DNA of 32,000 bases from Ruminococcus albus 7 = DSM 20455 (GTDB lineage Bacteria; Bacillota; Clostridia; Oscillospirales; Ruminococcaceae): contig NC_014824.1 of the NCBI RefSeq assembly GCF_000179635.2, positions 210,001 to 242,000 of the forward strand, written 5' to 3'. This document shows positions 4,828 to 32,000 of the stretch, piece after piece (within the stretch, counting starts at the first letter, position 1; each line of letters begins with the position of its first letter). Below the pieces are notes generated by a model, which saw nothing but the letters and a program-made list of their open reading frames with translations, made no database searches and was not told the DNA's origin. Both the position numbers and the translations under genes were made by a program.

Positions 4828-4833
4828 AAGTAC

Positions 4834-5163: not shown

Positions 5164-5203
5164 ACAAAGCATCTAAAATTTATCTTTTATACTATTAGTT
5201 TTT

Positions 5204-5232: not shown

Positions 5233-5238
5233 AAGTAC

Positions 5239-5636
5239 ATAGAATCATTTTCTCTGAATAGTGCGAAAGATAAGCTCACATTAAAACGCTGGGAAATTCG
5301 CACTTTATTTCGGGCGGCTCGGCGTCCGTAAATCGATTGAAGTATTCGTCAGTCTACAAATCTGTAGCCGAAATAACTCTCGATAGGGTTTAAACAATAC
5401 ACATTCAATCCGTGTATTCAGTTATATTTGTATATTTTTGCGGATGCAATCTGCGCAGTACAAATAGGCTGCGAGCTTATGTGAACTTGAAAGAACTGCA
5501 ATTCGGCTTGGATGCAATCTGCACAGGCAAATGAATTGCTAGAAATGAATCCGATCAGATACAACCTCTAGAACTGAATAATTCTTCTAAACAACAAAGG
5601 TCCCACCGTTTAAACTTCGGTAGGACCTCTTTTTTC
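5239..5636 (+). ncRNA. candidate structured ncRNA, cassette 2
   Basis: It is a paralog of cassette 1 and ends at a strong intrinsic terminator. It contains no credible ORF. Confidence 0.55.
5598..5636. terminator. bidirectional intrinsic terminator
   Basis: AGGTCCCACCG-loop-CGGTAGGACCT is followed by CTTTTTTC on the plus strand. On the minus strand it is followed by a T-rich run, downstream of the 516-aa gene. Confidence 0.8.
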
Positions 5637-5679
5637 TTATATTTGTATTTGACGCATAACTTTGACCATTGCCATTGGA

Positions 5680-7230
5680 TCAGTTTGCATCACGCGGCCT
5701 ACTGTACCAGCAGACAACTACATCACTGCCGTATACCGCATCTAGGAGTGTGGGATCAAATCCGGATTCTTCGCAGTAAGTCGGATATTCCTCGATGTCT
5801 ATCATCTTTGAACGCAGTTGACCACCGTCCGGCGCATACAGTTTATAATGGGCAAAAAGGTTTTCACGATCAACCTCCAGATACACACAGCTCTGACCGA
5901 ATACGCCTGCATAGCTGTGATCGTCCGGCAGTGCAAGATTGCCGGTCAGCGCGATGCCGTTCTCATTCACAAAGATGCGCAAATACGCTTCACCGTGTGC
6001 TTTGTCGGTGCGACAGATGCCGCCGGGATACTGATACGAAACCGGTTCATATTCCTCCGTATCCAGATTCTGAGGAAGAAGCCAGACAGTCTTCGGACCG
6101 TAGACCTTCGCTAAAAAAACATCTAGTTTTTCAATGATCTGCTCCGTTGTCAGCCTGTCCGGATTCTGATACAAATATGCAAACTGTTCTGATTCAAACA
6201 ACGTCCGCAATGACAGACTGATCAGTGGGCCGGGGGGACAAATCCTCTTGGTGAAAAAGAGCGTAGTGCAGCCGGTGCCGGTCAGTGCGGCTTCGCGAAA
6301 TGTGTCTTCATTTGTTTCTGCGGATTCCAGAAGCCCCGACAGTGCGGTGCGCGGCAGTGTACCCCATTGCGCTTCGGCAAAGATATTTGGTTGGAGAATC
6401 GCTTTTTCTATATCCTGCTTCGCGACGGAGATGTGGATGAGGGGCTCACCGACACAGGCGGCAAGCTGCTTAGGATAGAGCATGTTGCTGAAGAGCAGGA
6501 GACTATTGTCGGTCTCCAAGATGCGGATATAATTCCCGGTTTCTTTTTCGGTATGCTCCCAAGCAGATGACATTTCTAGCACTATTCTTTTCGCAAGTGC
6601 TGTGGCATCCGGCTTTTCGGTCATGCTAAGGATATTCCCGGAATAGAGCTCGATGCGTTCGACCTCAGGCACCTGCGCTTTTTTAAAATACAGCACAGCG
6701 CATCCTGCTTCAATGTTCTCTGTCATCAAGGTGATATCCAGATTCAAACAGGTTCCGAGAGCAGCAAGTCCGTCCTCTGCAAAGACATCGTCACCTTCGC
6801 AGATCTCTTTGAGTTGCGCCGCGTTCACACAATCCGGGAACTGTGCGGCAAACTGCCGATAATCGCTGTGTGTTCTGCCGCCGTAGGGCTCGCCGATCGC
6901 TATGCGGCAGGACTTCTTCCGGTTCGCTACTTGAAGCGATAGTTCCGCAAAATCGCTGTCAACAAGCTCTGCTGTGATAACCGGTTCCTGAAAAGCACCG
7001 ACTGCAATTGCTGCGCAGCGTTTAAGCGCGGTATGATTCTCTTTCTCCGGAGAGACTGCAAACCACTGTCCGCTTGCTGAAAAACGAAGACGTAGAGCAG
7101 TATATGCGTCGGATGCCTCTGCTTCCACAAAACCCTGCGCGGTCATGTATCTGCGAAGAATATCAGCTAGCTTCTCCGAAGAAAGCTGCTGCGGATTTTG
7201 AACAAAGATGCAGGATGCAGAAAGTCCCAT
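5680..7230 (-). CDS. hypothetical 516-aa protein encoded by a compositionally foreign, GC-richer gene
   Basis: ORF-track ORF with an AAAAGGAG RBS and a TACTATAAT -10 upstream. The gene body is visibly GC-rich, and the spurious ORFs in other frames are typical of high GC. Confidence 0.85.
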   Translation of the reverse strand: MGLSASCIFVQNPQQLSSEKLADILRRYMTAQGFVEAEASDAYTALRLRFSASGQWFAVSPEKENHTALKRCAAIAVGAFQEPVITAELVDSDFAELSLQVANRKKSCRIAIGEPYGGRTHSDYRQFAAQFPDCVNAAQLKEICEGDDVFAEDGLAALGTCLNLDITLMTENIEAGCAVLYFKKAQVPEVERIELYSGNILSMTEKPDATALAKRIVLEMSSAWEHTEKETGNYIRILETDNSLLLFSNMLYPKQLAACVGEPLIHISVAKQDIEKAILQPNIFAEAQWGTLPRTALSGLLESAETNEDTFREAALTGTGCTTLFFTKRICPPGPLISLSLRTLFESEQFAYLYQNPDRLTTEQIIEKLDVFLAKVYGPKTVWLLPQNLDTEEYEPVSYQYPGGICRTDKAHGEAYLRIFVNENGIALTGNLALPDDHSYAGVFGQSCVYLEVDRENLFAHYKLYAPDGGQLRSKMIDIEEYPTYCEESGFDPTLLDAVYGSDVVVCWYSRPRDAN

Positions 7231-7410
7231 GAGTGAATACTCCTTTTAGTAGTTTATTTGTCGAATTATAGTATGCCTTAACAGAAAAAAACTCAGAGAG
7301 CTGTTTCAAATAGCAAATAACATATCTACATTAGTAGATATTAGGGCTCTCTAAGTTATCTTCATTTATTTTATCATAACAATGATCAAAAGTCAATAGA
7401 CCATTATCCC

Positions 7411-7461
7411 CTTTTCAATCAGTAAGACTTCCCTTTCAAACTGTAAGATTCCATTGATTTT
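7411..7461 (+). repeat. 51-bp direct repeat, left copy, containing two 21-bp-phased half-sites
   Basis: The sequence is CTTTTCAATCAGTAAGACTTCCCTTTCAAACTGTAAGATTCCATTGATTTT. It matches 9536-9586 at 49 of 51 positions. Confidence 0.9.
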
Positions 7462-7588
7462 GCATACGACTGAGTGATCGCAGTTATTATCGGAAGCTTA
7501 TATTATGAAACGAAAACATATAATAGAAAACTCACACAAAAACAATAACAGTGGCTGTATACAAATGCTATACTGATGCAGTTTTTAG

Positions 7589-9244
7589 CTATATATCCGG
7601 TTTTGCGATTTCTTCTTTTGCTTTATCAACTATATCATCCGGAAAACCTATAGCGCTTAAAAGTTTTATAGCATTGCTTGAATCGTTGATACCGTTGTGT
7701 AATGTGTAATCAAACATGATGTCATCCGAGTCAATGACTTCCGAGAAATAGTAATTGGCAAAGATCTTATCAAATGCTTTTGCAAGTTCCAGATCATGGG
7801 TCGCCACCAAGAGCATACATCGTTTATCTGTAAAATAATTCAGTATCGCTTTTGAAGCTGCTATTCGTTCCCTGGTGTTAGTACCTTTAAGTATCTCGTC
7901 TATTGCAAGAAACAGCAGTCTGTCTTCTTGACAGAGCTCAATCATTCTCTTCAGATACTTTATTTCACGGATATAATAGCTTTCGCCTGATAAAATATCA
8001 TCTCTCACAGCCATTGATGTGATCACACCGCATTTGGGTACAGAAGCGCTTTCGGAAGTGCAGGTATGTATGGTCTGACCAAGAATAAGGTTTATTGCTG
8101 TGGATTTGATAAATGTGGATTTACCGGAAGCATTAGAGCCTGTGATTATTATATTGCGATCATATTCAATATCATTCGGTATCGCATTTGATATAGCAGG
8201 ATGAACTAATCCGACGAACGAAAAACTGTCATTATCTGCTGTTTTAGGAATACAGTATGTCGCCGCACTTTTTCTGTACGAAGCTATTGATACACTACAG
8301 TCTATCTCACCGATAAACTTGTATATACGCATACATTCCGACTTTTTTTCAATAAGTTCAGATATGATCTTATCGTACATGATAAAGTCGATCATGAGTG
8401 GACCGAGTAAATATGACATCATCATACTGACCTCATCTTTATTATCGGTAGCATTCTTCTGTTCGAGAAAAGTCGATCTTTTTGCGGTGTTTTTCAATGT
8501 GTTCAGATCTTCTGATATCTCATTGCTGAATTCCGGAACAAGCTCAGCCAGCGAAAATGATGTATTCAGCATTTTCCCTAAATTGAATACAGACTTTACT
8601 TTTATGTCCATTTTTTCCTTTTTTATCGTGTGGATGATCATATTTATAAGATAAACAGCTATGCACATTCCGATAAAAACTGGTTTTCTTATTATAATGG
8701 CAGCTGCTATCGATATCATAAGCAGATATGACAGCGCATAATAAAACTTACTATTTTTCAGTTTGTGCTTGGATATGTTTTCTATCAGTATCGGCATATC
8801 GTAGTTCACATACGATTTGCCTAGAAAATATAGCTTTTCCCTGACTTCGAATCTTTTGTCTTCGTTAGTACCAAAGAAAGATATTTTTTCTTCAAGCTGC
8901 TTCAGGTTGCTTTCTGTTTTTGAAAGATCATGCAGCTTTGAGTACAGACATTGCTCCCCGATATAACTGTCCGTGTGGTTAACAAGGGCAAAAATATTAT
9001 CCATGCTAAGATCTTCCCAAGTGATATCATCAACAATCTCATGTTCAGCTATACTTTTCTTGTCCATCAGATAAAGAGTTTCAATGTTGCCAAGTCTGTA
9101 GAACTGCTCCTCAGTATCATCACGAGGCACGCCAAAGGAAGATCTTATGTAGTCAAGGATACGTTTTTGCCGTTTTTTATCTTGAACGATAGTTATCACA
9201 ATAACAGTAACTATCATCAGCGATATCAATATCAAATATTCCAT
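7589..9244 (-). CDS. MutS-related ATPase (MutS domain V only) with transmembrane segments
   Basis: The 551-aa ORF has Walker A GSNASGKST, Walker B LLFLAIDEILKGTN and ATHDLELA. It has an N-terminal TM helix (LILISLMIVTVIVITIV) and central TM helices. I saw no mismatch-binding or Smr domain. Confidence 0.8.
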   Translation of the reverse strand: MEYLILISLMIVTVIVITIVQDKKRQKRILDYIRSSFGVPRDDTEEQFYRLGNIETLYLMDKKSIAEHEIVDDITWEDLSMDNIFALVNHTDSYIGEQCLYSKLHDLSKTESNLKQLEEKISFFGTNEDKRFEVREKLYFLGKSYVNYDMPILIENISKHKLKNSKFYYALSYLLMISIAAAIIIRKPVFIGMCIAVYLINMIIHTIKKEKMDIKVKSVFNLGKMLNTSFSLAELVPEFSNEISEDLNTLKNTAKRSTFLEQKNATDNKDEVSMMMSYLLGPLMIDFIMYDKIISELIEKKSECMRIYKFIGEIDCSVSIASYRKSAATYCIPKTADNDSFSFVGLVHPAISNAIPNDIEYDRNIIITGSNASGKSTFIKSTAINLILGQTIHTCTSESASVPKCGVITSMAVRDDILSGESYYIREIKYLKRMIELCQEDRLLFLAIDEILKGTNTRERIAASKAILNYFTDKRCMLLVATHDLELAKAFDKIFANYYFSEVIDSDDIMFDYTLHNGINDSSNAIKLLSAIGFPDDIVDKAKEEIAKPDI

Positions 9245-10763: not shown

Positions 10764-10796
10764 GCCACCGGTATTTTTTATGCCGGTGGCTTTTTT
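10764..10796 (+). terminator. intrinsic terminator
   Basis: GCCACCGG-loop-CCGGTGGC is followed by TTTTTT. Confidence 0.85.
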
Positions 10797-10813
10797 GTGT
10801 CACGCGTGACACA
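10796..10813. repeat. palindrome family, copy 3 (perfect)
   Basis: TGTGTCACGCGTGACACA lies directly after the terminator T-run, between convergent genes. Confidence 0.95.
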
Positions 10814-13747: not shown

Positions 13748-13765
13748 TGTGTCACGCGTGACACA
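13748..13765. repeat. palindrome family, copy 4 (perfect)
   Basis: TGTGTCACGCGTGACACA lies 27 bp upstream of a TATAAT at 13792-13797. Confidence 0.95.
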
Positions 13766-13902
13766 AACTTTAAAATCAGCTCCGCGTTCGATATAATGTT
13801 ATTACCCACGAGTCAGCTTTTATCTCGACAAAATGTTAAAATTATCAGCGTATTAATGGCAGTTGCTATCTTTTCTTTTTGTCGGTTCCCATAAAAAAAG
13901 AA

Positions 13903-13940
13903 AAGGCAAGCCCTCAAAATTTGCAGGGTCTTGCCTTTTG
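13903..13940. terminator. bidirectional terminator
   Basis: AAGGCAAGCCCT...AGGGTCTTGCCTT is flanked by an A-run and a T-run. It lies downstream of the zinc-ribbon membrane gene. Confidence 0.8.
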
Positions 13941-13965
13941 ATAATAATTTCTGCCGATTGCCGAC

Positions 13966-14775
13966 TCATCTTTGTTGATTTAAAGATCTTTCAGCCGTGA
14001 AGGTCTTCACGCTAGAGAAGAACGCGATTATTATTGTTATGAAGCATATAACAAAACCGAACTTTACGTTCACCTTCAGATATTCCTTTATTTCACTCAG
14101 GTCTGTTTTGCTATTTGTTATGTAGCGCTTGTAAAAATCGGTATTGAATATTATCAGACTTGCAAGCGCGATGACCGCACAGGTTGCTGATGCAAGCGGT
14201 AATATTTTTATTTTCTTTATAAACAGCAACATCATCCCCAAAATGCAGCAGAGCAGCGTTACTAACAACCACGGGTTCGCATCTTCTTTGTTGCCGTAGT
14301 CTTTGTAACTGGGAAGTATAAAATTCTTTCTAAGTTCTTCTACATTTTCGTTTTTCTTGACGTTTTTATCGCTTATAGTTGTCGGGCAAATGATATTGTA
14401 GCCTGAGTATATGACCTCGGTATTGTATTTATCGCCACTGCCGGTTATCGTTGAGGTATCGCATGAAACCGACATGAACGGAAAAAAGAAGCATACGATA
14501 GCAAGCAAAAAAGCGATTTTTGCTATAAACCTTGAGTGTATCCTGTTGCCTTTATACGCTGCGTCAGATATGTCTTCCGTAACTGGAACTGCTTGTACAG
14601 TCGAGTAAGATTCTGACTGATAGCTATCAGCCCCGTGTCTGCCAAAGAATTTTTCATCTAATAAAGCTTTATCTTCCGTGAAAAAGCTGTCATCATCGTC
14701 ATCTGTTACCGCACCGCACTGTATACAGAATGTCGAACCGTCAGGGTTTTTGCTTCCGCATATTGGACATATCAT
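13966..14775 (-). CDS. zinc-ribbon domain membrane protein
   Basis: The N-terminus reads MICPICGSKNPDGSTFCIQCGA, followed by several hydrophobic helices. A GAGGAGG RBS and a TGATATAAT -10 are present. Confidence 0.85.
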   Translation of the reverse strand: MICPICGSKNPDGSTFCIQCGAVTDDDDDSFFTEDKALLDEKFFGRHGADSYQSESYSTVQAVPVTEDISDAAYKGNRIHSRFIAKIAFLLAIVCFFFPFMSVSCDTSTITGSGDKYNTEVIYSGYNIICPTTISDKNVKKNENVEELRKNFILPSYKDYGNKEDANPWLLVTLLCCILGMMLLFIKKIKILPLASATCAVIALASLIIFNTDFYKRYITNSKTDLSEIKEYLKVNVKFGFVICFITIIIAFFSSVKTFTAERSLNQQR

Positions 14776-14865
14776 GATATTGCCTCCTCAATATATTTTT
14801 TCTGATTATATCATACTTTTTAATACAAATAAAAATACATCAATTAATCTTAAAGCTGTTCAGTA

Positions 14866-16152
14866 TTATTTAGCCGTTTTGATTCCTTTCTGTATCTCAT
14901 TGGCACGTTCTTCACTTATACCGCATTTTTCTGCATAGCTGAGCCATTTACCTACAACAACTTCAGTCTCGGATAATACCTTACGGCAGAACCCTTGTGA
15001 CAGCCCCATAGACTTTCCACTTGCTACAAGATCTTCTGCTGTTATTCCCGAGGTTTTTCCGTTTACTGACATCTGATGTTTTGATATCCATTTGTTATCG
15101 GGATTATAAGCGAATGTTAGATCGTATGCCGGAGAAAGCGCCCATTTGCCTTTACGATCCATCAAAAATGAGAAGTTCTTGACGTGGTCATCACAGTTTC
15201 CACCAAACACTGCAAACACTATACGTCTGAGGATCTGCTCTATCCCGCTTTTGCCAATACCAAGTCTCTTTGCAAGATCGGCATATAATTCATAACTGCA
15301 AATATTCGGTGTGTTATAATCAAAATGTCCCAACGCTGCAAGAGTCTGCATATGTATTTTGTCACCATTTGCACGATCAAAACGTTTTGTCATGAAATGA
15401 TGTAATCCGTCCTTTTTATATATACGACACTCGTTCATGTCGATCCCCAGATCTTTTGCCATAAGATAATAAGCGTATTCGATAAGTGAATATTGTTTTT
15501 TATCGGCTAAATTGTGGTCGCCGTTGCCAGATACTCCATCAAACTTGATAAGCCAGTAGTCAAAACCTTTCCCCGTTTCTATCTGTCCTGATCTGACTTC
15601 GCCGGTATCTTCATTCCACGCAATTATAGCTTTTGCTCTTGCACCGCCTGCCGAAGAACCTATCTCCATCAGCTGCATTATGCTTGCATCCTTGTCTGAC
15701 AAAACAGCACTCTCTTTACCTGACAGTATCTCAGATGCAAGTTGAGTCATCTCTGTTACATCGACGTTGCTGTTTAGAATTTCGGGACCTGCTGCAGGGA
15801 CATACTCAAGTGCGCCCATTCCGCGTTTTCCGGTGTAACACAGTCTCTCTATTGCTGTAAACGATTCGGGAGAACGACCCTGACCTGCAAGCCATTTGTT
15901 TATAACCGCATTACCAAATTTATCAGGCAAGGAGTCGGCAAATAATCCCGGGATTCCATGAAATGCCTCTATACGACTGAGTTCGGGGAAGGAGTATATT
16001 CGATCAGATAAAGGCATTCTGAACGGAGACAGTTCTATCCCACTGTTAAGGAACTTTCTATCGTATTCAAAACTCGCAGCAACATCATTTTCGCCTTGAT
16101 GAATGTATCCTATACGAGTTCCCCAGAGAAATACTTCTGCGGTAGTTATCAT
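14866..16152 (-). CDS. hipA: HipA-family serine/threonine kinase toxin (type II TA)
   Basis: The 428-aa ORF has an N-terminal coupling domain and a C-terminal DDHVKNFSFLM...LSPAYDL kinase core. It overlaps the upstream HTH gene by 4 nt. Confidence 0.9.
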   Translation of the reverse strand: MITTAEVFLWGTRIGYIHQGENDVAASFEYDRKFLNSGIELSPFRMPLSDRIYSFPELSRIEAFHGIPGLFADSLPDKFGNAVINKWLAGQGRSPESFTAIERLCYTGKRGMGALEYVPAAGPEILNSNVDVTEMTQLASEILSGKESAVLSDKDASIMQLMEIGSSAGGARAKAIIAWNEDTGEVRSGQIETGKGFDYWLIKFDGVSGNGDHNLADKKQYSLIEYAYYLMAKDLGIDMNECRIYKKDGLHHFMTKRFDRANGDKIHMQTLAALGHFDYNTPNICSYELYADLAKRLGIGKSGIEQILRRIVFAVFGGNCDDHVKNFSFLMDRKGKWALSPAYDLTFAYNPDNKWISKHQMSVNGKTSGITAEDLVASGKSMGLSQGFCRKVLSETEVVVGKWLSYAEKCGISEERANEIQKGIKTAK

Positions 16153-16487
16153 TCTTCATCGCCCCATTTCCAGTTATTATCGGTCTTTTTTCGTTTGCTT
16201 GCACGCTGTTTCGGAGCTTTGTTTTCTGCATAGTGTGAAGGTCGCTCCAGCGGATCCGGTATCAGTATATCTAGTTTTTCTTCAAGATCAAGTGCTTTAA
16301 AAAGTTTGATCAGTTTTAGAAGTCCTATATCATTACCGCTCTCAAAACGAGCTATTGTTCCAACTGAAACCATTGATTTTTCTGAAAGCTCTGATCTTGT
16401 CATTGGATAATCGATCCTGTACTGCTTGAATCTTTCTGATAATTCCTTAAATATAGCTTTGTCTTGTAATTCTCTGTTTATCTTCAT
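16149..16487 (-). CDS. hipB: XRE-family HTH antitoxin (HipB-like)
   Basis: An HTH is present (MTRSELSEKSMVSVGTIARFESG). It overlaps hipA at ATGA. Confidence 0.85.
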   Translation of the reverse strand: MKINRELQDKAIFKELSERFKQYRIDYPMTRSELSEKSMVSVGTIARFESGNDIGLLKLIKLFKALDLEEKLDILIPDPLERPSHYAENKAPKQRASKRKKTDNNWKWGDEE

Positions 16488-16523
16488 TAAGAACGCTCCT
16501 CGTAGTCTGTATTACTGGTATAT

Positions 16524-16552
16524 ATTATATCACATCTCAAATTAAAATGCAA
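16524..16552 (-). promoter_or_regulatory. hipBA promoter
   Basis: The minus strand reads TTGCAT-17 nt-TATAAT preceded by TGA. Confidence 0.65.
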
Positions 16553-16734
16553 TATATTGATTGTTAAAAATCACATTTACGCATAAAGTATAATATATTG
16601 TATTTTAAATAGTTTGAATAATCAAAATTAGTATTCTCAGTTATGATAAACGTTCTCTTCAGCAGAAAATAGATGAATGGAAATTGCTTTGATACTTTCA
16701 CGACTATTTTAGCTTGAAATCCATTTATCAGTGA

Positions 16735-16750
16735 GTGTCACGCGTGACAC
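16735..16750. repeat. palindrome family, copy 5 (perfect 16-bp core)
   Basis: GTGTCACGCGTGACAC lies between the AAA-ATPase terminator hairpin and the hipBA promoter. Confidence 0.9.
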
Positions 16751-16788
16751 AAGACAAATACCGAACCCGTAATCGTTAATATAGTGCA

Positions 16789-18025: not shown

Positions 18026-18215
18026 AGTAATCAACTCCTTCTGCCATGTATTATATGGATTTCTGGAATTATTATACCATGTCCGTTTTAAAAAGTCAAT
18101 AGTTGGAAATGTATTTCCAACTATACTAGAAAATGCGAACAATTGGAAATCTATTTATCCTCTTTAAGCAAGAAGAGGGGCTGCAACAGCCCCTTTGGTA
18201 TTTAGGGTAAGTTGA

Positions 18216-18244
18216 TTGACTATTAGTTCTCAGTGTGATATAAT
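18216..18244 (+). promoter_or_regulatory. near-consensus promoter reading through the IS remnant
   Basis: TTGACT-17 nt-TATAAT preceded by TGA. Confidence 0.65.
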
Positions 18245-18268
18245 AAATTAATCTTTCATTTAGAATTA

Positions 18269-18300
18269 TGGTTATCCCCTTAACACACCACAAGTAAGAT
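18269..18300 (+). repeat. putative IS terminal sequence adjacent to the transposase remnant
   Basis: TGGTTATCCCCTTAACACACCACAA lies immediately after the stop of the transposase fragment. It repeats 9311-9335. Confidence 0.6.
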
Positions 18301-18506
18301 CACTGCACCAAAGCAGCCAAGAGCCTTAAATACGCACTGTTTCCCAGCTTACGACGGTTGAATTTGTAACAGTATTCGGCAGCATATAACGCTGTGTGGA
18401 TCTTTTCGTTTCTAATGATTATGGAATGCCACATATAAAGTTTAAAGACTGGATTAAGCAAAAAGCTACATATAGTAAACCTGATTCTTCTGGCAGTAAT
18501 GGGCAT
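18300..18506 (-). pseudogene. C-terminal fragment of an IS1595-family-like transposase
   Basis: The 68-aa ORF ends ...HTALYAAEYCYKFNRRKLG.... This resembles the Y..EF.FR.NRR tail of ISXO2-like transposases. The catalytic domain is missing. Confidence 0.55.
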
Positions 18507-18526
18507 ATCTTTTAGGAGGAATAATA

Positions 18527-18673
18527 ATGGATATTAATGAGTTTGCTTATAGTTGGAGATTTACAGAAGATGATAGAGCTCTTTTTTCAGAATCTGCTGT
18601 CTCAAATAGCAATTTCTATGATGACTTTAAAAAATGGCAGCGTGAAAGCTGGAGAGAGATTTTTGGAAACTAA
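18527..18673 (+). CDS. hypothetical 48-aa protein
   Basis: This ORF is below the track length cutoff. An AGGAGGA RBS lies about 7 nt upstream of the ATG. Its stop is 2 nt before the ATG of the next gene. My hand translation gives MDINEFAYSWRFTEDDRALF... Confidence 0.55.
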   Translation: MDINEFAYSWRFTEDDRALFSESAVSNSNFYDDFKKWQRESWREIFGN

Positions 18674-18675
18674 AA

Positions 18676-24002: not shown

Positions 24003-27000
24003 ATGTATTTTTTTATGCAGAAAAACAGAAAGAAGCTCATCGCAAGAATGTCCGCAGCTACAATGGCTACACTCATGGCGTTCAATTCAATGGTGCCGAT
24101 AATCAGCTCGGCAGCTGAAGGTACAGTGTGGTTTAAGAATGGCAATGTTACTCTTGAACAGGCTGATGGTATTTATTACAATTACACATCTAAGTTGCCT
24201 TTTACCGCATATGACTCCCCCAGCGAACATGCAACATACGGCGGGGCTGTTAAGTTCCGTAATTCAAACGGTACTACAACAGAAGCCATAGGACTTACCG
24301 AGGGCGGCGGAATGCATCAGATGGTAATGTATGAGATGAAGGGTAACGGAGCAAATTCCAATCTCGGTATCTGTCTCAGACCTACAGCACACTCCTTTGC
24401 TGCCGGATTTTTTGATTCAGACGGAAAGATCGTCGAATACACATCTACTAATGGCTATACAGGATATTGGGACAAGGTTAAAGGAACACAGACCGGAAGG
24501 GCGATAGCCACAGCAATGTACTATGGCTACGGAGGAAGAGTTCAGGGTAAGAGTAAGAGTGTTGCAGACTGCTATATTGCAACTCAGTTTATCGTTTGGG
24601 AACTTGTATGCGGATACAGAGATCCTAAAACCATGGAACTTGTTACCAAGGATGCTAACGGCAATAACATTTCGACAAGTTCAAGCCTCCTTGATTACTA
24701 CAAGCCTACAGCCGGCGGCGCTGTTATAAGCAAGAACAACAGCTGCTCGGGGATCGTTGATGAATATAATAAAATCGTCAAATCCATGAAAAATTGGGCA
24801 GATACACTTTATAATAGGCCAGCAAGTCTCTACAGCACATCAGATAAGGTTGTTCTTGCGTATGATTTTGCTGATAACAAGTATACCGGAAGCGTAGATA
24901 TAAAGGGAGCAAAGGGAAACTGGGCAAATGCAACCGGCACAGCTCTCAAGTCTCAGTGGGGAGCTGATAATATATCTACAAACGGAACAGTATATACCAT
25001 AAGTTCTGAAAAAAGACCGACAGCTACCAAAACTGTTATTTCGCCTATAAGGACTGATGAGTATGATGCTGCAGACACTTGGACAATCTATAATCACAGT
25101 TTTGATCCAAGAAAAGCAAGAAACAGCTCCGATGAAGACTGCCAGGATCTTGCATTCAATGCAATGAGAATTGACCCTGCCGAGGGAGAAATCAATTATC
25201 AGGTAGCAAGCTACGGCGATATCGAGCTGACTAAGCTGTGGGAAATTAACGGAAATGTTATCGATGATGAAAAGGCAGCCGAATATATGACTTCCATTTC
25301 CTTCAACCTGTCCACAGTAGGCGAAGATGGTAAGACATACTATGTTAAGGCAAGCTGGGATAGCCTTTCTTCAAGCGACTATACCTTTACAGGAACGACT
25401 ACAAATGCAAGTGAAGCAACAAACTTCAGATTCAACTCCGGTGCTGAAGCAGATACAGTAATGAAGATCAAAAACATTCCTGCCGATGAAGATGGTATGG
25501 ATTATGTTGTGACTGAAACTGTAAGAGAAAATTCAAAGGCATATAATGATGGTTATGCTGCAGAGGATCCTAAGAACGTTCATGTCAGCGGATACAGCCT
25601 GACAGATAAGCCCGATGTTGCAACAGTAACATTTGCAAATAATAAGGAAAGCATTTACGGTCAGGTTTCTCTTCTGAAACTCGATTCTGAAAACGGTGAA
25701 AGACTTTCCGGTGCAACTTTTGAACTGTGGAATGATACTAACGAAAATGGTCAGCTTGATGAAGCTGATGTTAAGGTTGGAACGCTCAATGATAACAACA
25801 ACGGCGAGTATGTTTCCGACAAGATCGAAGGCGGTAAATATCTCGTAAAAGAAACAAAGGCTCCTTACGGTTATGTTGTATACAGAGCACCTATCGCTTT
25901 TGAAATCACCGAGGACGGTCAGAACCTGACTATCGGTAATACTATAGACGAAAACGGCAACGTTGTATTCAAGGAAAGACCTGCCAAGGGCAACATCGAG
26001 CTCAACAAGGTCGATTCTGATACAAATGAACCTATCTCCGGTGCGGAATTCACTGTATGGAAAGATGAAAACAAGAACGGTACTCTTGATGACGGCGATA
26101 CAGAAGTGGGAACTCTTTATGAAACAACAGAAGAAGTGATCGAAGAGGATACTCCTGACGGAGAAGCCGGAGAGGTAGTTACACGTGGTACCGGAAATTA
26201 CCACATAGAAGACCTCAGACTTGGACAGTATATCGTAAAGGAAACAGCGGCACCTGAGAATTACATCATTGATCCTAATGAATATGTAGCTGTTGTTGAA
26301 GCTGATGGACAGACTGTTTATATCAATAACAGAGAGAATAAAGAAGGATTCTTTGAGGTAGAAAAGAAGGGTAAGATAACTCTTACAAAGTACGATTCCA
26401 GATATCCTGACCATGTTCTTTCAGGAGCAGTATTTGATGTATGGAAGGATACTAACTCTAACGGATTTGTAGATGAAGTCGATGAATATCTTGGCAATCT
26501 TGTCGAAACTGCAGACGGTATCTACGAAATGTCAAATCTGAGACTGGGCGATTATATCGTACATGAAGCAGCGGCTCCCGAGGGCTTCAATGTTGATGAT
26601 GGTTACTACCCTGCAGCTATTAGAGATGACGGCGATATCGCAGTTGTAACAAACAGAGATGCAGACGGTGATTTCGCTTCCGGCTTCTACAATGACATCA
26701 AGCGTGGTGATATAGAGATAACAAAGACAGATATCGTATCATCTGAAGCACTGCCCAACACAGGCTTCAGGATCTACGACAAGGACAAGAACGTTATCTT
26801 TGAAGATTACACCGATGAAAACGGAAAGATCACCTTCAAGGAACTTGAATACGGTGAGTACTACTACCAGGAGTATGATGCTCCCGAGGGCTACATCATC
26901 GATGAATCTCTCTACAGATTTGAGATACGTGAGGATGGTGTCGTAGTAAGAGCTGATATGACAAACAGACCTAAGCCTGCACTTGTTACCATAACTAAAA

Positions 27001-27374
27001 CTGATATTTCTGAATCCACTACCCTGCCTAACACAGGAATAAGGATCTGCAGAGCTGACGGCACTGTTGTATCCGAACAGCGTACAGGTTCAGATGGTTC
27101 TGTGACCTTCGAGATTAATATCGAAGAGCTCGGCTATGGCAAGTACTACTTCGAAGAGTTTGATGCTCCCGAGGGTTATCTTATCAATGACGAAAAGCAC
27201 TGGTTCGAGATCACTGCAGGCGGTCAGGTCATTCACGATAAGCTGAGGGATGAAAAGGTTCCTAAGACAAGCGTTGATGTAAACACTGCTCTTCCTTTGA
27301 CAGCCGGCGCAGGTGCTGTGGCAGGACTTATAGTTCTGACATACGTTGCAATAGGCAAGAAGAAAGATATCTAA
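24003..27374 (+). CDS. cell-wall-anchored adhesin with about six Cna-B/SpaA-type repeat domains
   Basis: Repeats of the form G.IEL.K.D..T...L.GA.F.VW......NG..D........ETKAP.GY are present. There is a signal peptide and a C-terminal LPLTAG-hydrophobic-KKKD sorting-like signal. The start may be the ATG at 24015 rather than 24003. Confidence 0.9.
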   Translation: MYFFMQKNRKKLIARMSAATMATLMAFNSMVPIISSAAEGTVWFKNGNVTLEQADGIYYNYTSKLPFTAYDSPSEHATYGGAVKFRNSNGTTTEAIGLTEGGGMHQMVMYEMKGNGANSNLGICLRPTAHSFAAGFFDSDGKIVEYTSTNGYTGYWDKVKGTQTGRAIATAMYYGYGGRVQGKSKSVADCYIATQFIVWELVCGYRDPKTMELVTKDANGNNISTSSSLLDYYKPTAGGAVISKNNSCSGIVDEYNKIVKSMKNWADTLYNRPASLYSTSDKVVLAYDFADNKYTGSVDIKGAKGNWANATGTALKSQWGADNISTNGTVYTISSEKRPTATKTVISPIRTDEYDAADTWTIYNHSFDPRKARNSSDEDCQDLAFNAMRIDPAEGEINYQVASYGDIELTKLWEINGNVIDDEKAAEYMTSISFNLSTVGEDGKTYYVKASWDSLSSSDYTFTGTTTNASEATNFRFNSGAEADTVMKIKNIPADEDGMDYVVTETVRENSKAYNDGYAAEDPKNVHVSGYSLTDKPDVATVTFANNKESIYGQVSLLKLDSENGERLSGATFELWNDTNENGQLDEADVKVGTLNDNNNGEYVSDKIEGGKYLVKETKAPYGYVVYRAPIAFEITEDGQNLTIGNTIDENGNVVFKERPAKGNIELNKVDSDTNEPISGAEFTVWKDENKNGTLDDGDTEVGTLYETTEEVIEEDTPDGEAGEVVTRGTGNYHIEDLRLGQYIVKETAAPENYIIDPNEYVAVVEADGQTVYINNRENKEGFFEVEKKGKITLTKYDSRYPDHVLSGAVFDVWKDTNSNGFVDEVDEYLGNLVETADGIYEMSNLRLGDYIVHEAAAPEGFNVDDGYYPAAIRDDGDIAVVTNRDADGDFASGFYNDIKRGDIEITKTDIVSSEALPNTGFRIYDKDKNVIFEDYTDENGKITFKELEYGEYYYQEYDAPEGYIIDESLYRFEIREDGVVVRADMTNRPKPALVTITKTDISESTTLPNTGIRICRADGTVVSEQRTGSDGSVTFEINIEELGYGKYYFEEFDAPEGYLINDEKHWFEITAGGQVIHDKLRDEKVPKTSVDVNTALPLTAGAGAVAGLIVLTYVAIGKKKDI

Positions 27375-27415
27375 TTTAACAGCGCCTTTATTATCATACA
27401 TCCTTTGAGGAAAGA

Positions 27416-27445
27416 CAGCTAAGTGTAAAAGCTTAGCTGCCTTTT
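27416..27445 (+). terminator. intrinsic terminator
   Basis: CAGCTAAG-loop-CTTAGCTG is followed by CCTTTTC. Confidence 0.75.
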
Positions 27446-27477
27446 CGTATCTTAAATAGTCTTCCGTCTTAGAGTTC

Positions 27478-27495
27478 TGTGTCACGCGTGACACA
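27478..27495. repeat. palindrome family, copy 6 (perfect)
   Basis: TGTGTCACGCGTGACACA lies 33 bp after the adhesin terminator and 49 bp before a TATAAT at 27544-27549. Confidence 0.95.
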
Positions 27496-27697
27496 AAATA
27501 AATTCTATTTTTATTTTTCATTTTACTTAACTGAATTTTCTACTATAATACAAAAGGCAAGTATTTTAATATCTATTAGCAAAACTTCCCTGCCGCTTCT
27601 ACACAGTGGAACATCCTTAAAGAAAAGTCAGCTAAGTGTAAATCTTATCCGTATATTTCCGCCTTTGTCCTTATAAGGATAAGAAGCCTTTTTAATT

Positions 27698-27715
27698 TGT
27701 GTCACGTGTGACACA
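27698..27715. repeat. palindrome family, copy 7 (one central mismatch)
   Basis: The sequence is TGTGTCACGTGTGACACA. Confidence 0.9.
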
Positions 27716-27899
27716 GCAAAAGCACCTGGATTTAATTGTAACCTATAATGGTATTGCAGGTAGATAAAGCATTTAAGACTCCCCTGCTTTGAATTTTAAT
27801 AGTGCCAATTGAAGGTCAAAGGCTTTAATTCACTGGATTTCACATAGAGTATGTCACGGGTGTCACACTTGATACACAGGGACTGAGAACATTTCTCGG

Positions 27900-27941
27900 G
27901 TGGATTTTATCCGTTAATTGAGTGGATTTCATCCGTTAATT
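27900..27941 (+). repeat. iteron-like pair, unit 1
   Basis: GTGGATTTTATCCGTTAATT and GTGGATTTCATCCGTTAATT start 22 bp apart. Each contains the mini-palindrome GGAT-NNN-ATCC. Confidence 0.85.
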
Positions 27942-27982
27942 CAAAATCGAAACTAACAGAGATTCTGCGTTTCAGATTAGTT

Positions 27983-28000
27983 TGTGTCACGCGTGACACA
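27983..28000. repeat. palindrome family, copy 8 (perfect)
   Basis: The sequence is TGTGTCACGCGTGACACA. Confidence 0.95.
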
Positions 28001-28184
28001 GTAAAAGTGCATAGATTTCATTTGCCCCAATAATGGTTATGCAGGTAAATAAAGAATTTAAGACTCCCCTGCTTTGGATTTTAATGGTACCAATTGAAGA
28101 TCAAAGGCTTTAATTCACTGGATTTCACATAGAGTATGTCACGGTTGTCACACTTGATACACAGGGACTGAGAACATTTCTCGG

Positions 28185-28226
28185 GTGGATTTTATCCGTT
28201 AATTGAGTGGATTTCATCCGTTAATT
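28185..28226 (+). repeat. iteron-like pair, unit 2
   Basis: It has the same two 20-mers as 27900-27941, shifted by 285 bp. Confidence 0.85.
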
Positions 28227-28267
28227 CAAAATCGAAACTAACAGAGATTCTGCGTTTCAGATTAGTT

Positions 28268-28285
28268 TGTGTCACGCGTGACACA
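28268..28285. repeat. palindrome family, copy 9 (perfect)
   Basis: The sequence is TGTGTCACGCGTGACACA. Confidence 0.95.
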
Positions 28286-28469
28286 GTAAAAGTGCATAGA
28301 TTTCATTTGCCCCAATAATGGTTATGCAGGTAAATAAAGAATTTAAGACTCCCCTGCTTTGGATTTTAATGGTACCAATTGAAGATCAAAGGCTTTAATT
28401 CACTGGATTTCACATAGAGTATGTCACGGGTGTCACACTTGATACACAGGGACTGAGAACATTTCTCGG

Positions 28470-28511
28470 GTGGATTTTATCCGTTAATTGAGTGGATTTC
28501 ATCCGTTAATT
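28470..28511 (+). repeat. iteron-like pair, unit 3
   Basis: It has the same two 20-mers, shifted by 570 bp. Confidence 0.85.
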
Positions 28512-28552
28512 CAAAATCGAAACTAACAGAGATTCTGCGTTTCAAATTAGTT

Positions 28553-28570
28553 TGTGTCACGCGTGACACA
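28553..28570. repeat. palindrome family, copy 10 (perfect)
   Basis: TGTGTCACGCGTGACACA lies 68 bp upstream of the -10 of the 390-aa operon. Confidence 0.95.
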
Positions 28571-28614
28571 GTAAGTTCAATTACATAATTGCAAATACTA
28601 TTTTCCCTTTTTCT

Positions 28615-28643
28615 TTTTATCAAATCGAATTTTCCTGTATAAT
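28615..28643 (+). promoter_or_regulatory. probable promoter of the 390-aa/84-aa/DHH operon
   Basis: TATAAT lies at 28638-28643, preceded by TG. The -35 is weak. The block GAATTTTCCTGTATAAT resembles those upstream of 27544 and 31380. Confidence 0.5.
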
Positions 28644-28707: not shown

Positions 28708-29880
28708 ATGGGACAAAGATCACAAATGTACATTAAATTTGAATCTGAAAAAGAAAAAATACTGATAGCAAATTATTATCAATGGAATTATGGAGAAAGA
28801 ATGATTTCCAGAGCAAAATATGTTATTGAGTATATTAAAAATGCTTACGATACATTTTACAAAGAGGGCAATTTTCACTTTTGGTATGAAAATAAAGATA
28901 CTATCAGAAAACTAAAAAGACTGCTCGATGTAAATTTTGATATGCAGGATATAGTGTTGAGTCAGGATATTATTGAAGAATTCAAGGAAGAAGCTGATGA
29001 TAACTGTAAGTTCAATGATTATGTATTCTACGGTCAGGATAACAATGACGGTCAGTTCTACCTGTACGTGATGAATAATGGTTCTCTTAAGTATACTTTC
29101 ACAGATTATAATTGCAATGATCGTCTGACTGCGCATCAGTATATGGAAGACTATAATGCTGAAGATAGGGAAATCTGCGAAGAAAATACAACTTATATAG
29201 AAGAAAATGCTCAGCTTTTGTCAAATTCCGAATGGGCTGAATTTCTCGACGATAATTATTCTTCACTATATAAAAGGAGATCCACTCCGGCGGAAGAAGC
29301 AGTGTTCAAACTTTCAATGCTATGGGGCGATTATCTGAGATCAAAAAAATCCTACAAAGGCATATTATACAGCGATTTTCTTTCTAAAATTCCTGACGAT
29401 AAAGCGGCAAATATAATAAGAAATAAATCTCGTTGGTGTAATGAAAGCTCGGATATAAACAAGCTCTTTCAGGAAATGGCAGAGGAACTTATCGACGAAT
29501 CCTTTGAAATCGATATTCTAAAGGAAGTTGAGTTGTGTGATGTCTGCAAGCCATCAATAGAGCCATTGAAGTTTGCATCTGGTCTCACATCTAAAACACC
29601 GGCCGAACAGCTTATACTGTATAATAAGCTTCTTAAAAAGACAAGCAGCTCTGCAAATAGAAAGATAATAACCGATACAAGCGAATGTGCTGTTCTGTTT
29701 TCTATCGACAGCAGAGGAAATCCTCTTATAACACTTAAATTGTACGGAGAAAAATTCGGAAAATTAAAGGGAAAACCTGAAATGGTCGAGTTAACACCTT
29801 TCGAACGTTATGAGTTATACGATCTGGCAAATGAGTATTGTAAGAATCACTATAGTATGTCATTGCCTTCAAGGTGTTAA
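28708..29880 (+). CDS. hypothetical 390-aa protein
   Basis: ORF-track ORF with an AGGAGGA RBS. It is the first gene after the tandem array. I recognised no motif. Confidence 0.8.
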   Translation: MGQRSQMYIKFESEKEKILIANYYQWNYGERMISRAKYVIEYIKNAYDTFYKEGNFHFWYENKDTIRKLKRLLDVNFDMQDIVLSQDIIEEFKEEADDNCKFNDYVFYGQDNNDGQFYLYVMNNGSLKYTFTDYNCNDRLTAHQYMEDYNAEDREICEENTTYIEENAQLLSNSEWAEFLDDNYSSLYKRRSTPAEEAVFKLSMLWGDYLRSKKSYKGILYSDFLSKIPDDKAANIIRNKSRWCNESSDINKLFQEMAEELIDESFEIDILKEVELCDVCKPSIEPLKFASGLTSKTPAEQLILYNKLLKKTSSSANRKIITDTSECAVLFSIDSRGNPLITLKLYGEKFGKLKGKPEMVELTPFERYELYDLANEYCKNHYSMSLPSRC

Positions 29881-29894
29881 AAAGGAGAATGGCT

Positions 29895-30149
29895 ATGGGA
29901 AATACACGTAATACAAGAGCCTACTATAGGCGTGTGAGAAGTAAAAATATCGAACGTAAAAAGAAATTATATAATATTGTATATCATTGTAACTATGAAA
30001 AGCCTGAAGGAAAACTGAGTAAAGGAAAAGTTCACTGCAGCTGCCCTTGGTGCGCTTTCAGCGGACTGACTTATAGAAGAATAAAACGCGGCACAGCCAT
30101 GGATTATTCTGAGAAACACTACGAAGAATATTTCGACGACGTAGTATAA
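29895..30149 (+). CDS. small basic protein with a Cys/His cluster (possible zinc-binding)
   Basis: I prefer the ATG at 29895 (AAGGAG RBS 7 nt upstream) to the track GTG at 29874. The protein is Arg/Lys-rich and contains HCSCPWC. Confidence 0.65.
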   Translation: MGNTRNTRAYYRRVRSKNIERKKKLYNIVYHCNYEKPEGKLSKGKVHCSCPWCAFSGLTYRRIKRGTAMDYSEKHYEEYFDDVV

Positions 30150-30163
30150 TTGGAGGACAAATC

Positions 30164-31249
30164 ATGTTTGAACTGAATTTCGATGAACTGGATATGCTTT
30201 CACCTTTCGAAAAATTCAAAGACAAAATAACAAGATCAGATCTTAAGCCGGAAAGCAAGATCTTGCTGATGACTCATAACGATCTTGACGGTTCCGGACC
30301 AGCAGTGCTGCTTAAAAGCATTTTTGTAAAAACAGACGTTATTCACTGTTCTAATAATAATATGGATCGTGAGATAATGAATTCTATGTATATGGCAAAT
30401 AAATATGATGCGGTTTTCATTACAGACATATCCTGTACGAAAGAAACTGCAGAAAAGATAAATGAACACTATAATAGGAAGAAGCTTTATCTGCTTGATC
30501 ACCACAGAACAGCTGAGTATCTTAATGAGTATGACTGGGCATTTGTTCTGTCAGAACACATCAAAGAATCTTTCATTGATGAATATTATAAGGAACCCAT
30601 TGGAAAGCCTTCCGCAACTTCAATAACCTTCGACTTTTTGAAGTACTATGGGCTTACGAAGTATATCAAGAACCTTTCTCTTGCTAAAGAACTTGCTTTC
30701 ATGATAAGTGCTTATGATTCTTGGGATTGGGTAAATGTTTTTGAAAAAGATCCAAAGTTTCTGGATCTGAACACTGTATTCTGGATCTACCAGCCGGAAA
30801 TATTCGACAACATCTTTTCAAAAAAGATATCTGAAGAAGGAGCAAGGATTCTCGATAAAAGAGAAAACTTTGTACTTATGCTGGAAAAAGGAAGAAACGA
30901 AAACTATATCAACTCCAAAAGAGAGTCATTCAAAAAGTGTGTACTTACAATAGATGATGTTTCTTACAAGGCAATTTATTGTTTTGCAGACTCTCACACC
31001 CCGGAACTTTTTGAAGTAATGAAAACTGATTTCCCGGAAGGAGACATTGCAATCATAAATACAGGTTCCAAATTATCCTTCCGTTCCATAGACAATGATA
31101 TCAATGTTGAAAAGCTTGCGAGAAAGCTTGGAGGCGGCGGACATATCAATGCAAGTGGTGTTCATGTTTCTTCTGAGCTTCAGAAAGAATATATGGAAAA
31201 GCTTCTTACAGGAACTATTGAAAAATATAATCAGTCCGCTAATTCATGA
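30164..31249 (+). CDS. DHH/DHHA1-family phosphoesterase (NrnA-like)
   Basis: The motifs THNDLDGSG, LLDHHRT and GGGGHINASG are present. A GGAGGA RBS is present. Confidence 0.85.
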   Translation: MFELNFDELDMLSPFEKFKDKITRSDLKPESKILLMTHNDLDGSGPAVLLKSIFVKTDVIHCSNNNMDREIMNSMYMANKYDAVFITDISCTKETAEKINEHYNRKKLYLLDHHRTAEYLNEYDWAFVLSEHIKESFIDEYYKEPIGKPSATSITFDFLKYYGLTKYIKNLSLAKELAFMISAYDSWDWVNVFEKDPKFLDLNTVFWIYQPEIFDNIFSKKISEEGARILDKRENFVLMLEKGRNENYINSKRESFKKCVLTIDDVSYKAIYCFADSHTPELFEVMKTDFPEGDIAIINTGSKLSFRSIDNDINVEKLARKLGGGGHINASGVHVSSELQKEYMEKLLTGTIEKYNQSANS

Positions 31250-31280: not shown

Positions 31281-31308
31281 TAGAGTGTGACACGCGTGAC
31301 ACACTCTA
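31281..31308. repeat. palindrome family, copy 11 (extended 28-bp variant with one mismatched pair)
   Basis: The sequence is TAGAGTGTGACACGCGTGACACACTCTA. It lies 32 bp after the DHH stop and 72 bp before the next -10. Its left flank TTTCAGATTAG matches the array units. Confidence 0.9.
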
Positions 31309-31940: not shown

Positions 31941-31958
31941 TGTGTCACGCGTGACACA
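31941..31958. repeat. palindrome family, copy 12 (perfect)
   Basis: TGTGTCACGCGTGACACA lies directly after the terminator T-run. Confidence 0.95.
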
Positions 31959-31968
31959 CTTAGATCAG

Positions 31969-32000
31969 GTGGATTACGTCCGTTAATTAGAGTGGATTTT
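31969..32000 (+). repeat. iteron-like pair, cut by the window end
   Basis: GTGGATTACGTCCGTTAATT is followed by GTGGATTTT.... The spacing and sequence match the pairs in the 285-bp units. Confidence 0.75.

Follow-up and report, generated by a model that had tools for sequence, protein, structure and literature searches.

A composite tandem array of parS-like palindromes and phased direct repeats on a probable Ruminococcus albus megaplasmid: a candidate centromere or ParB loading site

Introduction

In this study, we ask what role, if any, can be assigned to a noncoding tandem repeat of Ruminococcus albus 7 = DSM 20455, in which three units of 285 bp follow one another between an adhesin gene and an operon (27698-28570 of a stretch of 32,000 nucleotides, positions 210,001 to 242,000 of contig NC_014824.1; the whole stretch is referred to as the window). 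R. albus strain 7 carries pRUMAL01 and pRUMAL02 (PMC4081043), and the replicon in question is probably a large R. albus megaplasmid. A first-pass annotation, made from the sequence alone, had listed in each unit a parS-like palindrome, a degenerate palindrome, two phased repeats and a hairpin, had named iteron origins and centromeres as the closest layouts, and had not recognised the combination. Our preferred answer, to which we assign a probability of roughly 0.45, is that the array would function as a centromere or ParB loading hub. The less specific statement, that it is a protein-binding array and neither an origin nor an RNA locus, is quite likely to hold, judging from the features described below.

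Anatomy of the array

Tandem Repeats Finder placed the 285-bp repeat at 27692-28574 (3.1 copies, 95% matches), and a gap-free repeat search gave unit start-to-start spacings of exactly 285 and 285. Together with alignment, these searches recovered the three tandem units and their named elements at the places where the first-pass annotation had put them. Palindromes (P) and units (U) alternate as P-U-P-U-P-U-P, with a palindrome at both ends. In the three-unit alignment A1, units 2 and 3 differ at only two columns (163 and 278). Between units 1 and 2, 20 differing columns all fall within columns 1-118, and past column 118 their sole difference is column 163, where units 1 and 3 agree and unit 2 deviates. 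The last two units represent a recent duplication, and the recent amplification proposed earlier holds for these two. The array is also noncoding, as had been stated: its open reading frames (ORFs) all have 30 codons or fewer and are not conserved between units, and direct reading of the sequence shows that a 26-residue ORF of units 2 and 3 stops after 14 codons in unit 1. Nor did a promoter search return anything better than weak 9/12 promoter-like matches, in agreement with the earlier view that no convincing internal promoter exists. The inverted repeat AAACTAA/TTAGTTT, with 7-nt arms 20 nt apart, does abut the next palindrome, but as a hairpin it is not above chance (-4.9 kcal/mol, z = -1.5, 17/200 shuffles fold as well).

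Although the 285-bp period is exact, the unit is composite. Palindrome-like sites are spaced 152, 133, 152, 133... bp, which divides each unit into an A subunit of 152 bp and a B subunit of 133 bp. The A subunit consists of a palindrome, an 11-bp gap and three GGATTTYA-type boxes. The B subunit begins with a decayed palindrome, whose right arm is direct (TATGTCACGG(G/T)TGTCACA, at 27850, 28135 and 28420), and continues with two 20-bp iterons, GTGGATTT(T/C)ATCCGTTAATT, which start at 27900/27922, 28185/28207 and 28470/28492 and are spaced 22 bp start to start within each pair. Seven matches to the iteron pattern are found in the window, against 0.04 expected by chance. In total, 4 intact and 3 decayed palindromes are packed into 870 bp, accompanied by 15 GGATT boxes (5 per unit). 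The boxes all lie on one strand, and several of the spacings, namely 22 bp, 63 bp and 285 bp (the last equal to 27.1 turns), come close to whole helical turns. This anatomy bears out the description of the array as phased repeats of the protein-binding type, and resolves the unfamiliar layout into alternating A and B subunits, each of which combines a palindrome with GGATT boxes.

Conservation of the array in relatives

The division into subunits is supported by a metagenome scaffold (L109) whose operon protein is 81% identical to that of the window. At the same site, between the adhesin stop codon and the operon, it carries at least six tandem units of 153-155 bp, each bounded by a perfect palindrome. 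In alignment A2 these units match the first 152 bp of the window unit and lack any B-type iterons, and the degenerate palindrome of the window coincides exactly with the next palindrome of L109. We therefore read 285 bp as A (152) plus B (133), and the degenerate palindrome as a decayed A/B junction site.

The units of L109 are 66-85% identical to one another and 58-71% identical to the A subunits of the window. Conservation within them is uneven. Identity, averaged over alignment columns, reaches 0.98 in the palindrome, 0.91 in box a2 (CTTGGATTTTAATGGTACCTATTGA) and 0.86 in box a1, compared with 0.70-0.77 in all other segments, which is the footprint pattern that would be expected of protein-binding sites. 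Because the L109 units have diverged this far and nevertheless keep palindrome and boxes, we conclude that the array is old and its motifs are under selection.

A second relative (L042) holds an array elsewhere. Downstream of its homologue of a 144-residue gene of the window, a centre-variant palindrome and an iteron pair are followed by at least five units of 133/158 bp, with 19 same-strand GTGRAYTTTA boxes in an array that extends to the contig end. The last 60 bp of the window (31941-32000: palindrome, 10 bp, two iterons) start the same structure. Taken together, the relatives indicate that such arrays are old, lineage-variable and assembled from a small set of modules. Both the arrays and the GGATT boxes occur only in plasmid-type relatives (the window, L109 and L042), while integrated conjugative elements carry single sites, a restriction that would fit the stronger need of a free low-copy replicon for a centromere.

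These comparisons also bear on whether the array does anything at all. Unequal crossing-over or replication slippage between identical 18-24-bp palindrome copies might have produced it as a neutral, unstable amplification without function, only the single palindromes being functional. Several observations are in keeping with such a by-product: palindromes delimit the array on both sides, just 2 positions distinguish unit 2 from unit 3, further palindrome-associated duplications occur in the window (4713/5146 and 27398-27429/27611-27642, the latter copying sequence behind the adhesin stop codon into the 202-bp module that precedes the array), and three relatives (L042, L096, L097) have no array at this site. 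We nonetheless consider it unlikely, as the array of L109 sits at the same site with units that have diverged while palindrome and boxes were kept, and as the A/B alternation and the homologous L042 array point to long-term upkeep of the unit types.

An RNA function is the least probable of the alternatives that we weighed, and we regard it as very improbable. The units would in that case be small-RNA genes or a processed RNA array, for example an antitoxin-like repeat RNA for the downstream operon. Each unit does contain weak minus-strand promoter-like matches, a small stem with T-rich sequence is found at 27883-27899, and the folding energy is below that of shuffles, though most of this fold comes from the two flanking palindromes pairing with each other. 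However, RNAalifold on eight diverged A units gave a covariation term of +0.34, just 1 of the 31 pairs being compensatory, no Rfam match was obtained even at E <= 1, the 5' 120 nt of unit 1 have diverged without keeping the predicted stems, and relatives keep the operon without the array. Type III antitoxin repeats measure about 36 nt; this identity was rejected, since the unit size is wrong and no toxin family is present.

The palindrome and the ParB-family gene beside it

The palindrome itself, TGTGTCACGCGTGACACA, is not confined to the array. Twelve copies with at most one mismatch occur in the window, and 14 with at most three mismatches, in either case against 0.02 expected, so that the earlier description of it as an array element stands for the array copies but covers only part of its distribution. 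The 12 sites start at 4713, 5146, 10796, 13748, 16734, 27478, 27698, 27983, 28268, 28553, 31286 and 31941; within the array, the copy at 27698 is a centre variant (CGTG, 1 mismatch), while those at 27983, 28268 and 28553 are perfect. All 12 are intergenic and lie at transcription-unit boundaries, that is after terminators, between convergent gene ends, or 40-70 bp upstream of promoters. A recurrent module, in which the palindrome is followed after 10-13 bp by a GGATT box, is shared by the A subunits, the sites at 31941 and 16734 (minus strand) and L042. The second iteron of the 31941 module leaves the window and reads GTGGATTTCATACGTTAATT in contig L019, and the 51 bp preceding the 31286 palindrome are similar to the end of a B subunit, with 72% identity across 69 nt when the palindrome is counted in.

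Structurally, the palindrome is a perfect 8-2-8 arrangement of 18 bp, the central dinucleotide of which varies (GC, GT, AC) while the arms are kept. Its half-site, TGTGTCAC, agrees with the parS half-site, TGTTTCAC, at 7 of 8 bases; its centre is 2 bp wider than that of parS, and the 27698 variant is 2 mismatches from full parS. The parS likeness noted earlier is strengthened by related elements, in which the identical palindrome directly follows a ParB-family gene. In Ruminococcus sp. Marseille-P6503 (L003, L107, L108) it lies 3 bp past the stop codon of a ParB-family gene, whose product has ParB_N and HTH_ParB domains. A 70%-identical ParB homologue occurs in four independent metagenome contigs (L103-L106), in 4/4 of which a perfect palindrome is found 1-2 bp past the stop codon, immediately preceding the ribosome-binding site of a DUF3846 gene. 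The ParB-bearing element is conjugative, as is indicated by its integrase, TraG/VirD4 coupling protein, ParA-ParB-DUF3846 operon and SpaA adhesin.

The ParB of this conjugative element aligns with Spo0J, Noc and ParB over the N-terminal CTPase domain and helix-turn-helix (HTH; 1vz0, E = 4e-9). The GxxR box is kept as AGRHRREAA, and the motif is present in homologues P0121 to P0131. A ParB-like lineage at 46% identity (P0130; L112, L113) is accompanied by a different dispersed palindrome, AGTCGCATSATGCGACT, found at 348, 3886 and 4636 of L112 and at 2658 and 6197 of L113, one of these copies preceding parA by 32 bp, an indication that the protein and its site change in step. The parS likeness, the adjacency to parB, the GxxR box and the AGTCGCATSATGCGACT lineage jointly make a protein of the ParB/KorB family the most likely binder of the palindrome, and we consider such a binder reasonably likely on these sequence comparisons.

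A different role for the palindromes would be that of sites for a site-specific recombinase, the units then being mobile noncoding cassettes (pdif- or integron-like) and the array a set of reinserted cassettes. The palindromes do bracket gene modules of either orientation, in one Marseille-P6503 locus (L008) nearly every gene including one for a tyrosine recombinase, and their central dinucleotide varies while the arms are kept. Yet their architecture is wrong for this purpose. Xer/tyrosine-recombinase cores have 6-8-bp spacers, XerC/D sites are 11-6-11, and attC sites are imperfect and 60-140 bp long; an 8-2-8 arrangement is unlike the former and a perfect 18-bp palindrome unlike the latter, and both attC and pdif sites were rejected on this ground. 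Furthermore, no recombinase gene is present in the window, the modules there are multigene, in both orientations and with promoters of their own, and the constant placement of the site behind parB, despite 30% divergence of the protein, is characteristic of a ParB site and not of a cassette junction. We consider this explanation improbable.

Beyond the window, exact matches to the 18-mer were found in Ruminococcus genomes and metagenome-assembled genomes (MAGs) in a scan of one genome per species. In the Marseille-P6503 genome just 5 exact palindromes occur, all within two 8-kb loci. Genome-wide repeats of the repetitive extragenic palindrome (REP) and bacterial interspersed mosaic element (BIME) kind were rejected, as the palindrome is confined to mobile-element loci; DNA uptake sequences were likewise considered and rejected. 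No copy was detected in the viral contigs searched, the iteron pattern gave only single chance matches in viral contigs and metagenomes (L042 excepted), the array and its 12-kb surroundings had no DNA-similarity match among PLSDB plasmids or phage records, and a literature search by palindrome sequence returned no match.

Some of these occurrences deserve separate mention. In L008 (positions 1-8000) seven palindromes occur in 8 kb, between nearly all genes; among those that they separate are genes for the tyrosine recombinase and for a MuF_C-domain protein, along with a small cassette similar to a type I toxin, in which a 25-residue hydrophobic peptide is encoded between long inverted repeats on the 5' and 3' sides. 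The identical 18-mer is also found on five contigs (L002, L005, L006, L011, L012; 48-57% GC) of one unrelated 'Bacteroidaceae' MAG, Red_deer_4_mag_4, where it has flanks of its own (AGCT...AGC) in at least three contigs and looks like a separate dispersed-repeat family with the same core. Two Ruminococcaceae contigs have about 46 bp beside the palindrome in common, in inverted orientation (L010 196-260, L013 3133-3196). Both stretches adjoin transposase-like genes, so an insertion sequence may target or carry the palindrome, and window positions 27410-27518 match L010 at 87-90% identity.

Replication origin or centromere

Direct repeats of 20 bp that are spaced 22 bp apart on a single strand also recall iterons, and the array could be a replication origin or a copy-control (handcuffing) locus whose GGATT-core repeats bind the initiator and titrate or pair Rep. 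There is precedent for such loci in incA of P1 and in the extra iteron clusters of other plasmids, which act by titration or pairing of Rep. The long L042 array, with more than 19 such boxes, would suit this role, and L113, which has a Rep_3 gene with at least nine iterons of 21-22 bp (TATTCGGAATAACTGGTTTTA) beside it, demonstrates that Rep_3 and iterons of this length occur in this group of mobile elements. Against an origin, no Rep family was detected when all large ORFs of the 32 kb were scanned with Pfam, PHROG and NCBIfam, the iterons are contiguous only in pairs and not in runs of at least three, the interval from 23.5 to 32 kb contains no DnaA box even if one mismatch is allowed, and no AT-rich unwinding stretch is evident (the array has 33-43% GC). 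The boxes are, moreover, unrelated in sequence to the L113 iterons, and the L109 array has no B-type iterons.

The GC-skew check suggested by the first-pass annotation points the same way: cumulative skew turns at about 18 kb, and the skew stays positive across 19-32 kb, with no switch at the array, though skew is confounded here with gene orientation. We therefore rate an origin as distinctly unlikely, and the earlier comparison with iteron origins is not supported. The skew minimum itself (about 18143-18675) has minus-strand genes to its left and plus-strand genes to its right and could reflect either a replication-related switch or transcription strand bias.

Returning to the centromere-like reading, we propose the following model. 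A ParB/KorB-family protein encoded by the replicon would bind or load at the 18-bp palindrome. Single palindromes would mark module boundaries, and the seven sites of the array would nucleate a large ParB complex, similar to that at sopC, which would serve plasmid partition. It could, in addition, have a silencing or insulating effect on the transcription units to either side, the neighbouring operon included. The GGATT boxes would probably be bound by a second protein, or else by another domain of the ParB-type one; this second binder could hold the ParB complex in position or lock it, much as KorA acts on KorB. Recombination between flanking palindromes has probably made the array grow and shrink. 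Since palindromes stand at both ends of the array and of other local duplications, they probably mediate duplications.

Several points weigh against this model. Centromeres usually adjoin parAB, which the array does not within the available sequence: tblastn found no ParB-family gene in the 32-kb window, and among the best 120 profile matches no ParB homologue was found on a 420,706-bp contig, the longest to carry the 390-residue product of the operon. The 2-bp wider centre alters the half-site geometry relative to parS. Three relatives (L042, L096, L097; 76-80% identical) lack an array at the site upstream of the operon, so it must be dispensable there or replaced by a downstream array of the L042 type. 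To our knowledge, the palindrome density in L008 is above that of any described parS or OB network, and could indicate another role such as recombination or insulation.

Comparison with known systems

By analogy, and not as a demonstrated member of these systems or of BisD-bisS, we liken the array to sopC and the dispersed sites to KorB-OB/KorA-OA. The sopC locus of plasmid F consists of 12 tandem 43-bp repeats, each with a SopB-binding inverted repeat. It shares with our array noncoding tandem units, one ParB-family-type palindrome in each, and a copy number above strict need. The differences are considerable, however: the array unit measures 285 bp (152 + 133) and adds five same-strand GGATT boxes, alternate array sites are decayed, and sopC directly follows sopAB, whereas the array has no parAB in the window.

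In the IncP plasmid RK2, KorB acts from dispersed OB sites, slides in a CTP-dependent manner and is locked by KorA (PMC11790492). The likeness here consists in the many dispersed palindromes, intergenic or promoter-proximal, on a mobile replicon, and in a second short motif near some of them. In RK2 a single ParB-family CTPase, KorB, serves both partition and silencing, a combination that would have a counterpart here if our reading of the sequence is right. The differences are that OB has an unrelated sequence (TTTAGCGGCTAAA core), that the sites of RK2 are single and not arranged in composite tandem arrays, that its OA is palindromic whereas our second motif is a direct repeat, and that the present host is a Firmicute.

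To the chromosomal parS of Firmicutes (TGTTNCACGTGAAACA) and Spo0J/ParB, the palindrome is linked by its half-site, by the alignment of the related-element protein with Spo0J/Noc, GxxR included, and by the position of the site at the 3' end of parB; it differs in its length of 18 bp with the wider centre, in being mobile-element-specific and strictly intergenic, and in its far higher local density. The Rep_3 origin of L113 shares direct repeats of 20-22 bp at 22-bp spacing, but the array has iteron pairs only and lacks an adjacent rep gene, a DnaA box, an AT-rich element and sequence similarity to it. BisD loads at bisS sites on ICEclc (PMC12409273). Like the system proposed here, BisD-bisS pairs a ParB-like CTP-binding clamp of a conjugative element with parS-like sites, and it acts over tens of kb on promoters of the element; it differs in having two bisS sites and in BisD being an activator together with BisC, as against dozens of sites plus arrays here. 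What is new in the present case is the site sequence, the very high intergenic density in elements of Firmicutes, the composite A/B unit coupled to phased direct repeats, and the large size of the unit.

A bolder proposal, which we think unlikely, is that Ruminococcus megaplasmids and conjugative elements use an undescribed two-part DNA 'address' system. Loading palindromes for a ParB-type CTPase at the boundary of nearly all cargo modules would be combined with phased GGATT iterons, at which a partner protein would stop the clamp or lock it, giving a Gram-positive counterpart of KorB-KorA silencing and insulation that becomes a centromere where amplified; the palindromes would also drive duplication and shuffling of cargo. 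Should our reading of the array and its palindromes be right, one ParB-family site would organise the 420-kb plasmid of a major rumen cellulose degrader by marking its module boundaries, and amplified sites would form the centromere. The recently established concept of ParB-type CTP clamps as long-range regulators would then extend from IncP plasmids and ICEclc to mobile elements of Firmicutes, TGTGTCACGCGTGACACA would provide a sequence tag for such elements in rumen and gut metagenomes, and breaks in short-read assemblies at the array locus would be explained. Contigs with window genes, retrieved by exact-protein look-ups, are 3.3-3.5 kb long, and most of them are interrupted within unit 3 and again at the 31969 iteron, as expected of repeats in an assembly.

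Table 1. Positions of the array subunits, the dispersed palindromes and adjacent features in the window
Feature	Position	Strand	Remarks
Dispersed palindromes	4713-4730, 5146-5163, 10796-10813, 13748-13765		Transcription-unit boundaries
Palindrome 16734-16751 with TGGATTTCA box 10 bp away	16715-16751	-	Layout as at 31941
Perfect palindrome TGTGTCACGCGTGACACA, single	27478-27495		39 bp past adhesin gene terminator
202-bp palindrome-bounded module	27496-27697	+	Promoter-like TTTACT-16-TATAAT at 27522-27549
Unit 1, A subunit	27698-27849	+	Palindrome variant TGTGTCACGTGTGACACA 27698-27715; boxes 27725-27749, 27788-27812, 27832-27856 (third box extends into B subunit)
Unit 1, B subunit	27850-27982	+	Decayed palindrome TATGTCACGGGTGTCACA 27850-27867; small stem 27883-27899; iterons 27900-27919, 27922-27941; weak hairpin, arm AAACTAA 27950-27956, partner TTAGTTT 27977-27983 (1 base into next palindrome)
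Unit 2, A subunit	27983-28134	+	Perfect palindrome 27983-28000; a1 28010-28034, a2 TTTGGATTTTAATGGTACCAATTGA 28073-28097, a3 28117-28141
Unit 2, B subunit	28135-28267	+	Decayed palindrome 28135-28152; iterons 28185-28204, 28207-28226; hairpin, arm AAACTAA 28235-28241, partner TTAGTTT 28262-28268 (1 base into next palindrome)
Unit 3, A subunit	28268-28419	+	Perfect palindrome 28268-28285; boxes 28295-28319, 28358-28382, 28402-28426
Unit 3, B subunit	28420-28552	+	Decayed palindrome 28420-28437; iterons 28470-28489, 28492-28511
Closing perfect palindrome	28553-28570		Array end, 67 bp upstream of probable operon -10
TATAAT, probable operon -10	28638-28643	+	-10 and downstream leader conserved in L109, L042, L096
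Operon: 390-residue protein, 91-residue basic protein with Cys motif, 361-residue DHH/DHHA1 phosphoesterase	28708-31249	+	
Palindrome, 1 mismatch	31286-31303		37 bp past DHH stop codon
B-type module	31941-32000	+	Perfect palindrome, 10 bp, GTGGATTACGTCCGTTAATT 31969-31988, second iteron from 31992

Neighbouring operon and other window genes

The distance from the last palindrome to the operon -10 is nearly the same in L109 (65 bp) as in the window (Table 1). A functional tie between array and operon, which the first-pass annotation had entertained, was nevertheless rejected, as operon homologues occur without arrays: relatives whose operon proteins are 79-81% identical (L042, L096, L097) keep the operon where the array is absent, and no arrays were found beside the distant homologues (L096, L098-L102, L111). 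Its 390-residue product (28708-29880), which is 100% identical to a hypothetical protein of R. albus, has no recognisable DNA-binding fold. No match was found in Pfam, PHROG, NCBIfam or among PDB sequences, and its AlphaFold model, though confident (predicted local distance difference test, pLDDT, 92.6), had no Foldseek match to the PDB at E < 1e-3. With neither sequence nor fold match in support, this protein was dropped as a candidate Rep or DNA binder. Its 269 homologues (E <= 0.001) are mostly metagenome sequences, most of which match only the N-terminal ~185 residues, and the few genomic contexts retrieved look plasmid- or conjugative-element-like (ParM-like ALP_N, sortase, adhesins).

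The genes of the window form an accessory and defence mosaic, with no replication or partition genes among them. The families represented are HipA with an HTH antitoxin, AAA_14/DUF4143, a MutS-like ATPase, SUKH, ankyrin, NYN, CoiA-like, a SpaA/thioester adhesin and the DHH phosphoesterase. A HipA-like kinase and its HTH_3 partner (14866-16487, minus strand; a toxin-antitoxin pair of the HipBA type) make up one palindrome-bounded module that runs from 13748 to 16734. The SpaA-domain repeats inside the adhesin (26827-26905 and 27112-27190) also lie 285 bp apart, a coincidence with no sequence relation to the array.

Two further loci may encode RNA. At 4713-5560, two tandem units of about 400-433 bp each begin with a palindrome, and a promoter close to the consensus comes next (TTGAAA/TTGAAT-17-TATAAT, 4799-4830 and 5204-5235). 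The ~300 nt past each promoter contain hairpins with paired substitutions between the copies, and are candidates for a structured RNA pair, for which no Rfam family match was obtained. At 2830-2912 (minus strand), a c-di-GMP-I riboswitch (70.7 bits) lies upstream of a 543-residue ORF (1125-2756), and in L096 EAL and GGDEF genes adjoin the operon homologue.

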